Source of the DNA: a virus | Virus genome (UHGV): UHGV-0250870 | Reading direction: 5' to 3' (one strand) | DNA length: 44,878 bases | Part shown: positions 12,001 to 15,000 of the stretch, piece after piece | Layout: each line of letters begins with the position of its first letter | Position numbering within the stretch: the stretch's first letter is position 1 | Program-made: the position numbers

Positions 12001-15000
12001 TGGTTCGGTTTGACATTGAAGAGGCATGGGCGGAGCGGCAGTTAAAGAGGGTAACGCGATAGTGTTGTTGATTTTTCCCGAATCTGTGGTAAATTTGCTC
12101 TAACGATGGGCGTTTTATGCCTGACGTTAGAAGATTTTTTACACCCCGCCGCCTGGCGGGTTTTTTATGACTGAAATCGCGTCAGTACAGTAAACGCGCT
12201 GGTGGCGGTGAATACCTGTCTTTCAGCTTGCTGGCTTTTTCGACAAGAGTTATTGGTGTGTCACGTTAACCGGAAAAGGGAAAAAGACATGCTAAAACAG
12301 CAGGATATGACAGAAACCGCCAGAGTAGTGTTTAATGAATTAAGCGTTACCGAACCGGCGACAGTCGGGGAGATTGCACAGAATACTTACCTTTCACGCG
12401 AACGCTGCCAGTTAATACTGACCCAGCTGGTTATGGCGGGTCTGGCAGACTATCAGTTTGGTTGTTACAGACGCCTTCAGTCCTGAAGGCTTTTTTATTT
12501 GTGGTAAATGGGCGGCTGGTGGGTGTTAGGGGCACTCACCAGCCATCTGCTCATGCGTCTGGATCACAAGCAAACCTCAGGCCCACTGCTTTGCGCAAAA
12601 GCAGAATGAGCCTATCAGAGACAGGCTTAATGATCCATGCTTAATACTGTAAAAATATCCAGTTGTGAGTTAATCAACGCCGACTGCCTGGAATTTATCC
12701 GGTCGTTACCCGAAAATTCTGTTGACCTGATAGTCACGGACCCGCCGTACTTTAAAGTGAAGCCTGAGGGCTGGGATAACCAGTGGAAGGGCGACGATGA
12801 TTACCTGAAGTGGCTGGACCAGTGTCTGGCGCAGTTCTGGCGGGTGCTGAAACCTGCCGGAAGTCTTTACCTGTTCTGTGGTCATCGCCTGGCATCTGAT
12901 ATCGAAATCATGATGCGTGAACGCTTCAGTGTGCTGAACCATATTATCTGGGCGAAGCCGTCCGGACGCTGGAACGGATGCAACAAGGAAAGCCTGCGGG
13001 CGTATTTCCCCGCCACAGAGCGCATTCTGTTCGCGGAACATTATCAGGGGCCGTATCGTCCGAAAGATGCCGGGTATGCGGCGAAGGGCAGTGCACTGAA
13101 ACAGCATGTGATGGCCCCGCTGATTTCTTACTTTCGTGATGCGCGCGCGGCCCTGGGGATAACGGCAAAACAGATTGCAGATGCCACAGGAAAGAAAAAC
13201 ATGGTGTCGCACTGGTTCAGTGCCAGTCAGTGGCAGCTACCGAACGAAAGCGATTATCTGAAATTACAGTCGCTGTTTGCCCGGGTGGCAGAAGAGAAAC
13301 ATCAGCGCGGTGAACTGGAAAAGCCCCACCACCAGCTGGTGGATACGTATACGTCACTGAACCGGCAGTATGTGGAGCTGCAGAGTGAATATAAGCATCT
13401 GCGGCGGTATTTTGGTGTGACGGCGCAGGTGCCGTACACGGATGTGTGGACACATAAACCGGTGCAGTTCTATCCCGGGAAACATCCGTGCGAAAAACCG
13501 GCAGAAATGCTGCAGCAGATAATCAGCGCAAGCAGTCGTCCGGGTGACCTGGTTGCAGATTTTTTTATGGGCTCAGGTTCAACGGTAAAAGCGGCACTGG
13601 CGCTCGGGCGTCGTGCGATTGGCGTTGAACTGGAGACCGGACGTTTTGAGCAGACAGTCAGGGAAGTTCAGGATTTAATCGTTTGAAACGGATGAGATTG
13701 CAGAATTAATTACGCACCATTATTATTCTGCTCCCGGCCCTTTAGCTCAGTGGTGAGAGCGAGCGACTCATAATCGCCAGGTCGCTGGTTCAAATCCAGC
13801 AAGGGCCACCATCACATACCGCCATTAGCTCATCAGGAAAGAGCGCCAGCCTTCGAAGCTGGTTGCGCGGAGTTCGGGTCCCCGAAGGCGGTCCATTATC
13901 TGTATCCTGCGTTGTTAGCTCAGCCGGACAGAGCAATTGCCTTCTAAGCAATCGGTCACTGGTTCGAATCCAGTACAACGCGCCACACTTATTTTCCCTG
14001 GCTCGCTTTTGCGGGCTTTTTTTTAAATGTCTCACAATTCAGGCGGTTGACTGTTGTCTGGTTTGCGGGGAGTTTGTTAAAAGAAACTGGCATGGTGAAT
14101 CCCCCTGTGCGGAGGGGCAATCAGCGAGTAGGTATATGGGATAATCGCGGATTCAGGTGCTGGTACTGAATTCACCGGGAGGCACCCGGCACCATGCAAT
14201 GGCACATAGCGCCACTCTCCAGCCCCTCTCCGGAGGGGCTTTTCTGTGCCGGATACATCACAGTTTCTGGAACCTTAGGTACTACAGTATCAGTCAGGGT
14301 GCTATATTTTCAGATGTGATGAAAGCCTGTCAGCAGGCAGGGCGTATCGGAAATGACCCAGTAGAGAAAACGTTGACTCAGATACCGGTGCTGAGTTACC
14401 GGGAAACCGGCATCACATGACCGCTATCCTTCCAGGCCCATCCGCTCCGGTGGGCCTTTTTACTGCAGAAAACAGGTTCCCCGTTAAATGCTATGTTGCT
14501 CACAATTCAGTAAGTTGACAGTTGCCTGTCAGACTGGGCATTTGTTAAAAAAATTTCGCATGGTGAATCCCCCTGAGCGGAGGGGCGACTGGTGACGGTA
14601 TAATCTCTGATTATCAAAACGAGAATGACGCGGGTTTAGTGGCACCGGGCTGAACTCACCGGGAGGCACCCGGCACCATGTGCATGATGATACAGATACG
14701 CGGCTTTAGCCCCTCTCCGGAGGGGCTTTCTTATGGACAAAAAAAGCCCGCGCTGGGAGACGCGGGCGGCAAGGAATAAACAATAAAACGTGAAGTAATA
14801 TTTCAGCTGGCGAATAATACCCCATAGTAATCACTCTGCGCAACTGCGCGGTCTTTTTCGAATTGCGGGCTGTAGTCTCCCTTCTGCCATTGTCCTGTAA
14901 CTTCCGGACTTCAGCCTGCTCCTTATCTGACTCACAACATTATCCCGCCCGGGAGGATTCATGGCATTTAAACACTATGACGTGGTCAGGGCGGCATCGC

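Follow-up and report, generated by a model that had tools for sequence, protein, structure and literature searches.

We analyzed the 44,878-nucleotide (nt) virus genome UHGV-0250870 (hereafter the window, meaning this whole stretch of DNA) around the end of its gene for an antiterminator of the lambda Q type, where the sequence carries a candidate late-gene switch consisting of a promoter (pR'), a promoter-proximal pause element and a terminator (tR'). The promoter composite, TTGATT-N16-TAAATT-TGCTCT-AACGATGGG, occupies 12068-12110 and begins 5 bases past the Q stop codon, just as a first-pass annotation of this DNA, made without database searches, had read it immediately after Q. That annotation had also placed an intrinsic terminator about 45 nt further on, and a hairpin of six G-C pairs with a 4-nt loop, followed by six T residues, was found there, with its stem at +44 to +59 of the predicted transcript and 83 nt past the Q stop codon. 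The predicted RNA 3' end lies near 12167 (+65 to +67), giving a leader of about 66 nt. Further downstream, the methylase, transfer RNA (tRNA), esterase and lysis genes that the annotation had listed all lie on the same strand and in a fitting order. The features are collected in Table 1.

Table 1. Features at and around the Q/pR'/tR' locus of the window (aa, amino acids; ORF, open reading frame; MFE, minimum free energy)
Feature	Position	Strand	Basis or remark
Q antiterminator gene, 273 aa, lambda-Q family	11241..12062	+	ORF call, Pfam, BLASTP and PDB matches
Q stop codon TAG	12060-12062	+	Read in sequence
-35 hexamer TTGATT	12068..12073	+	4/6 consensus positions; TTTACT at the equivalent position in distant relatives
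16-nt spacer TTTCCCGAATCTGTGG, candidate Q-binding element	12074..12089	+	Conserved in relatives, clade-specific
Extended -10, TGg at the 3' end of the spacer	TG 12087-12088	+	Read in sequence
-10 hexamer TAAATT	12090..12095	+	Same as lambda pR'
Discriminator TGCTCT	12096..12101	+	Variable in close relatives: TGCCCT, CGTCAT, CGCACT, CGCCCT
Predicted start (+1 = 12102) and pause element AACGAT (+1 to +6), then GGG (+7 to +9), together AACGATGGG	12102..12110	+	Lambda register
Predicted 5'-terminal hairpin	12102..12128	+	AACG 12102-12105 with CGUU 12125-12128; inner stem 12108-12113 with 12117-12122
Predicted sigma-dependent pause position, +16 to +18 (U17/G18, G8 at -10)	12117..12119	+	Analogy with the lambda pause at +16
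Unpaired A/U-rich linker AGAAGAUUUUUUACAC	12129..12144	+	MFE fold, RNAalifold
Mosaic joint; Q/pR'/pause cassette on its left, shared terminator plus late-region module on its right	12142..12146	.	Boundaries of matches to phage records
tR' intrinsic terminator CCCGCC-GCCT-GGCGGG + T6	Stem-loop 12145..12160, U6 12161..12166	+	Terminator scan and fold
TrmB-like winged-helix ORF, 65 aa, first gene past tR'	12289..12486	+	TrmB family regulator in the phiP27 annotation
DNA methylase (N6/N4)	12637-13686	+	ORF and family matches
tRNA-Met, tRNA-Arg, tRNA-Arg	13736-13985	+	
Split esterase (DUF1737/SASA)	14961-16815	+	
Holin, P21-type	16888-17181	+	

The gene upstream of the promoter had been called Q, and comparison of its product with known families bore this out. 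The protein matched PF03589 ('Antitermination protein Q', E=5e-51), which was the only family match above threshold, a DnaJ zinc-finger match remaining sub-threshold. In BLASTP it aligned end to end with lambda Q (30% identity, E=5e-37), and against the lambda Q chain of PDB 7UBM/7UBN (E=2.2e-38) it aligned in two blocks, residues 1-113 and 182-273. Between these blocks lies an insertion of ~66 aa (residues about 114-181) in the zinc-ribbon arm, which brings the number of CxxCxGxG repeats to four in the window Q, against two in lambda Q. The N-terminal segment, which forms the exit-channel nozzle in lambda Q (PMC9388147), is retained. Judged by its sequence, the window protein is a full-length lambda-Q homologue. 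Its four repeats resemble a two-zinc DnaJ domain, and the lambda arm homologous to the enlarged one touches the Q-binding element and sigma region 4.

The promoter region was then compared with that of lambda (NC_001416), where the sequence is TTGACT-N17-TAAATT-TGACTC-AACGATGGG. Window and lambda agree, all in register, at 17 of the 21 positions that run from the -10 hexamer to the end of GGG, and MAFFT also placed the two pR' regions in register, with AACGATGG invariant across six divergent sequences. The likeness to the lambda -10 and pause region noted in the first-pass annotation is therefore real. In lambda pR', AACGAT at +1 to +6 is a -10-like element whose binding by sigma70 causes the pause at +16, and it is followed by GGG as a discriminator-like sequence (Strobel and Roberts, PMC4005639). 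The full lambda cassette consists of the Q gene, pR', a Q-binding element, a sigma-dependent pause element and a terminator (Yin et al., PMC9388147), and the Q-binding element lies inside the promoter, partly between the -35 and -10 sites (structure, PMC9388147; 2018 survey of pR' regions). Window and lambda share the Q family, a promoter after Q, TAAATT, a 6-nt gap, AACGATGGG at +1 to +9, and a terminator ahead of the late genes; they differ in that the promoter follows the Q stop codon by about 43 nt in lambda and by 5 nt in the window. Within the window TAAATT-N6-AACGATGGG occurs a single time, and dinucleotide shuffles gave an expectation of 0.06 occurrences with up to two mismatches.

Conservation was assessed at two distances. 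Eighty viral contigs encode a Q 93-100% identical to that of the window, and in these the DNA from the -35 hexamer to about +33 is almost invariant, while the discriminator and the terminator hairpin vary. When one genome per species was scanned, more distant relatives turned up in Enterobacter, Dryocola, Chimaeribacter, Kalamiella, Erwinia and others. Six of them have a Q only 50-59% identical to the window Q, and in these six, identity to the window was 29% upstream of the -35 hexamer, 67% in that hexamer, 89% in the spacer, 78% in the -10 hexamer, 94% in both AACGAT and GGG, and 21% from +10 to +30. As promoter spacers normally vary freely, the footprint over the spacer probably marks a protein-binding site. 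The natural variants of the pause hexamer (AATGAT, AACAAT, AATTAT, GATGAT) all keep A2, A5 and T6, and every variant seen gains one match to TATAAT, as would be expected if sigma region 2 reads this hexamer. A scan of the viral collection with GGTAAATT-N6-AACAAT for more pause-element variants gave nearly all chance matches in unrelated contigs, and one known locus was re-found.

Across lambda-Q loci each clade has its own conserved spacer, TGAATAA..TTGGG in the lambda clade, TTCAAAAA..TGG in the SfV/Qin clade and TTTCCCGAATCTGTGG in that of the window, and these clade-specific spacers are likely to be the cognate Q-binding elements. The same layout was seen in all three clades, at 272 of the 280 loci surveyed. 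Such data bear on the proposal that the hairpin at 12145-12166 is the plain terminator of the early-right operon ending in Q, and that the promoter-like sequence is an inactive relic. Standing so soon after the Q stop codon, the terminator would also stop transcripts through Q, and a generic promoter scan of the window did not list the site at 12068-12095. That scan omitted the promoter because 8 of 12 consensus positions matched and its threshold was 9. A relic, however, sits poorly with a spacer and AACGATGGG that are 89-94% conserved against flanks of 21-29%, with spacers that co-vary with Q, with variants restricted to non-critical positions of the -10-like hexamer, and with a layout that recurs from clade to clade, and we consider it highly improbable. 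On the comparative data, chance occurrence or non-function of the cassette appears very unlikely.

In the Enterobacter, Erwinia and Chimaeribacter relatives (L085-L091) the DNA that separates the Q stop codon from the promoter contains an inverted repeat, some 20-45 nt upstream of +1. This repeat ends at the -35 hexamer (in L087, TAGCTCG...CGAGCTA) and has no counterpart in the window.

The SfV/Qin clade provided a homologue with transcript data. It has the layout of the window, with a leader of 65-67 nt, AACGATGGGC and CGTT at equivalent positions, a Q that is 40% identical to the window Q and likewise carries the arm insertion, and a terminator that is annotated in the SfV record. It differs in its conserved spacer (TTTTCAAAAAATATGG) and its -10 hexamer (TAAGAT or TAAAAT), which implies a different Q specificity. 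In Escherichia coli K-12 MG1655, the Qin cassette (L576) after ydfT/quuQ reads TTTGCA-N17-TAAAAT-TTTTTC-AACGATGGGC, then CGTT, then CCCGC-TGATGA-GCGGG-TTTT, and no promoter, terminator or RNA feature is annotated in the RefSeq stretch examined. Term-seq placed an 'orphan' 3' end at 1,642,356(-), in the context ...GCGGGTTTTGTGC, which is given in three sheets and has read scores of 103591 and 55368 in two rows (Adams et al., eLife 2021, PMC7815308). This 3' end falls eight bases beyond the terminator stem, at a distance of 67 nt from the +1 predicted at 1,642,422(-). Because it maps there, the homologous K-12 terminator works in vivo. The same end implies an unannotated Qin RNA of about 67 nt (1,642,356-1,642,422, minus strand), the 5' end of which is predicted.

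Leader length was surveyed at the 280 lambda-Q-family loci by anchoring on the pause element and locating the first intrinsic terminator, the length being taken as the stem end plus 7, a rule that gives exactly 194 nt for lambda. In this sample, which is skewed towards close relatives of five query proteins, 215 loci had leaders of at most 70 nt and 54 had leaders of 181-262 nt. Window-type spacers (n=89) were followed by 87 leaders of the shorter class and none of the longer, SfV/Qin-type spacers (n=88) by 83 and one, lambda-type spacers (n=95) by 40 and 53, and other spacers (n=8) by five and none. The 215 short leaders ranged from 54 to 68 nt with a median of 65 nt. A short leader of about 65 nt is the modal state among these loci and the 194 nt of lambda a minority long form, so that the 'very short' of the first-pass annotation is apt relative to lambda (66 against 194 nt) but not among lambda-Q loci at large. 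Even among proteins 100% identical to lambda Q (tblastn) three distinct leaders occurred, of which two measure about 55-60 nt. In the relatives loops and stems are replaced, yet the hairpin and the T-run are always present.

The stretch of ~130 nt that lengthens the lambda leader (GAGGCGGCGCTTACTACCGATTCCGCCTAGTTGG..., about 810-940 in L001) was also observed behind a window-type promoter (L087, Dryocola, from about +29 of the leader) and, in a more divergent form, following a Yokenella-type promoter (L429). It has the appearance of an insertion that separates the 5' hairpin from the terminator.

We conclude that the window cassette is very probably a lambda-type pR'/pause/tR' late-gene switch of a lambdoid prophage. 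Several points weigh against this conclusion. The promoter matches just 8 of 12 consensus positions and went unlisted in the generic scan. Its spacer is 16 nt, with an extended -10, where lambda has 17 nt, and is unlike the lambda Q-binding element in sequence, so that conservation is what points to Q binding. The motif TTGAC at -9 to -5, which recurs throughout the lambda clade and which we take to be the -35-like site used by sigma region 4 in the lambda Q-loading complex, is not kept, the window clade having TTGCT (12094-12099) and the SfV/Qin clade nothing similar. The window Q is 66 aa longer than lambda Q, and as the insertion enlarges the zinc arm, which in lambda contacts DNA and sigma region 4, details of Q loading may differ from lambda. 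Finally, the evidence on the window cassette itself is sequence evidence, and the K-12 3' end speaks for the terminator and not for the position of the RNA start.

Some of these points would equally suit a scheme in which promoter and terminator are real but the enlarged Q, with two predicted zinc centers, loads unlike lambda Q, either through another geometry on a 16-nt spacer or without repositioning of sigma region 4. The ~66-aa arm insertion with its four CxxCxGxG repeats, the 16-nt spacer and the missing TTGAC all agree with such a scheme. Yet the window does not differ from lambda in the pause element, in where that element lies or in the GGG, and the N- and C-terminal segments of the window Q align fully with lambda Q. 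Moreover, a Pectobacterium Q of 271 aa (L096; lambda Q has 207 aa) precedes a lambda-type spacer with TTGAC, and since this locus combines a long Q with a lambda-type spacer, extra Q length is not tied to one promoter type. A distinct mode of loading seems improbable to us.

As a lambda-type switch, and by analogy with the lambda cassette, the locus would operate as follows. A constitutive sigma70 promoter (TTGATT, 16 nt, TGgTAAATT) would start RNA at about 12102. Sigma70, still bound, would read AACGAT and GGG on the non-template strand as a second -10 element, so that RNA polymerase would pause some 16-18 nt into the transcript. Without Q, the polymerase would escape the pause and terminate at the hairpin and U6 of 12145-12166, releasing an RNA of ~66 nt that would be the counterpart of lambda 6S RNA. 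With Q, the protein bound to its site in the spacer between the -35 and -10 hexamers would load onto the paused polymerase, and the Q-modified polymerase would pass tR' and further terminators to reach the methylase, tRNA, esterase and lysis genes. Everything from 12289 to the holin lies on the plus strand, and the gene order suggests that the genes within 12637..17181 are reachable only by readthrough. At least six strong plus-strand terminator-like sites (12473, 14000, 14221, 14434, 14708 and 14836) precede the holin, and the lysis genes would therefore need a processive antiterminator.

The 66-nt leader has an MFE fold of -21.9 kcal/mol (z=-2.77), made up of a 5' hairpin (1-27), the unpaired AGAAGAUUUUUUACAC and the terminator, and the RNAalifold consensus of 20 clade members has the same structure. 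The outer stem of the hairpin joins AACG (+1 to +4) with CGUU (+24 to +27), its 5' arm doubling as the pause element. A (U)CGUU complement is present in all lambda-Q clades, at +19 to +28 and with an unrelated intervening loop, and this variable distance favors pairing over a fixed DNA signal. Lambda shares the feature, its version being AACGA/UCGUU with the complement about 20 nt downstream. Compensatory changes were found in a Yokenella-type lineage (L129, L428, L429), which has AATGA with TCATT, and in a Pectobacterium-type lineage (L096, L509, L510, L512), which has AACA with TGTT; in L264 a G-U pair has become A-U. Uncompensated changes were limited to rare variants of one or two contigs each (L077, L513, L163, L166, L270, L063). 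Across an alignment of 25 sequences, the four core pairs were 98% paired and nearly invariant, covariation being scarce since a 5' arm that also serves as pause element hardly varies.

Statistical support for the pairing was mixed. A permutation test of 5-mer complementarity, with G-U pairs admitted, discriminated weakly, as four of five pairs are common by chance; in the same test 18 leaders were paired at all five positions, against a shuffle maximum of 15. When extension of the hairpin to -1 to -3 was considered (TCTAACG/CGTTAGA in the window), the count of 7-pair helices was not above that of shuffle controls, and -2 and -3 were unpaired in most rows. Differences in loop length led MAFFT to break the 5'-terminal hairpin apart in its 3' arm. 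A covariance model of the long-loop group missed the lambda-, Yokenella- and Pectobacterium-type leaders and was unsuitable for counting pairs across the family. Overall, the comparison is suggestive of a pairing between the leader 5' end and the downstream CGUU.

Whether the leader of ~66 nt is more than a by-product of the switch was also considered. It could be a stable constitutive regulatory RNA in lysogens, or its hairpin could be a functional part of the cassette, and we hold this broader idea only tentatively, as somewhat unlikely. The model for it is StxS, the short pR'-tR' RNA of Stx phages, which is constitutive in lysogens and a functional small RNA (sRNA) (PMC7547250). StxS is, like the RNA predicted here from the sequence, a short late-promoter RNA ended at tR', but its terminated precursor is 258 nt long and is trimmed to 74 nt by RNase E (PMC7547250). 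In its specific form the proposal keeps the cassette as described and adds that the RNA acts in trans, as an Hfq-binding regulator in lysogens. The predicted fold, in which 16 unpaired A/U-rich nt separate the 5' hairpin from the terminator hairpin and its U6, is consistent with such a role, and +7 to +40 is nearly invariant within the clade while discriminator and terminator vary. The homologous K-12 terminator, with the Term-seq 3' end described above, also speaks for it. What suggests Hfq binding and a target, however, is the architecture, and the conservation of +7 to +40 may reflect recent common descent, that stretch being just 21% identical in distant relatives. No Rfam family matched the leader at gathering thresholds or at permissive E-values, and a literature search by exact leader sequence or by K-12 coordinates gave no useful match. 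A trans-acting role of this kind is thus possible but, in our estimate, doubtful.

A known prophage sRNA of the same size was rejected as the identity of the leader. HnrS (EcOnc10-12; PMC13502914), a multicopy sRNA, is likewise 66 nt long, located in the late region and ended by an intrinsic terminator, but its sequence (ATAACAATAATAATCTTCTACCC...) is unrelated, and a 33-nt HnrS segment from a primer table was unmatched in the window with up to three mismatches.

Matches to phage records revealed a mosaic joint beside the leader terminator. Most records matching the region do so only from 12142-12146 onward, that is, over the terminator stem, the 65-codon TrmB-like ORF and the methylase. In Stx2_EH2201 the terminator and downstream DNA of the window follow a Q82-family Q of 126 residues (PF06530, E=6e-53), and the promoter region, which lacks TAAATT-N6-AACGATGGG, is a different one. 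From this boundary and from Stx2_EH2201 it appears that Q, promoter and pause element travel as one cassette, while the terminator is part of the late-region module. In one IMG/VR contig (L287) an SfV-type promoter was seen joined to the lambda leader exactly at AACGATGGG.

The first-pass annotation had proposed alignment with the pR' regions of lambda, 82 and 21. The lambda region aligns, as described, but 82 and 21 are not expected to, their Q families being different, and the sole Q82-family cassette read, that of Stx2_EH2201, shares only the terminator and what follows. Q82- and Q21-type cassettes are built on the same principle as that of the window, combining a Q gene and a promoter that contains the Q site with a sigma-dependent pause and a terminator, but their Q proteins belong to unrelated families (PF06530 for the Q82 type). 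Identity of the window cassette with either type was rejected, as the window Q belongs to PF03589. StxS phages carry a Q933-type Q, again another family. The 2018 survey of pR' regions deals with Stx phages, and its accessible part does not address a cassette of the window type.

Several further features were observed in the window. The TrmB-like ORF has its own terminator-like hairpin at 12473-12490 and is conserved among phages whose Q families differ. In the interval from the tRNA genes to the esterase, Rfam STnc100 was matched twice in tandem (136 and 165 bits, at 14061-14251 and 14529-14738), and both matches end in one identical hairpin, AGCCCCTCTCCGGAGGGGCT. The esterase is split into a 162-aa ORF (DUF1737, 14961-15449) and an overlapping 472-aa ORF in another frame (SASA plus DUF6645, 15397-16815), and is probably a frameshifted nanS-p-like gene. 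Rfam also matched DicF RNA at 175-226 (-) and the sok antitoxin at 9041-9216 (+), the latter beside a hok-like ORF at 9154-9366; both matches are typical of Qin-like prophages.

The distribution of the cassette was assessed with a 401-nt query covering the Q 3' end, the promoter and the leader. At least 80% of this query was covered in 1424 of 5426 complete E. coli genomes, with 797 records at 99% identity or more, among them an O104:H4 strain whose copy is 100% identical, and no promoter, terminator or RNA feature was annotated at these matches. The class of switch is a textbook one, and the cassette is an unannotated instance of it that is very common in E. coli. For specialists, the interest lies in the finding that a leader of ~65 nt is typical of the lambda-Q cassettes sampled, with the lambda 6S RNA in the minority. 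The leader is also a candidate constitutive prophage RNA, of a kind shown to be regulatory in the case of StxS. The main value of the assignment is for annotation, where it marks the methylase, tRNA, esterase and lysis genes as a set that would be silent in the lysogen and switched on by Q.

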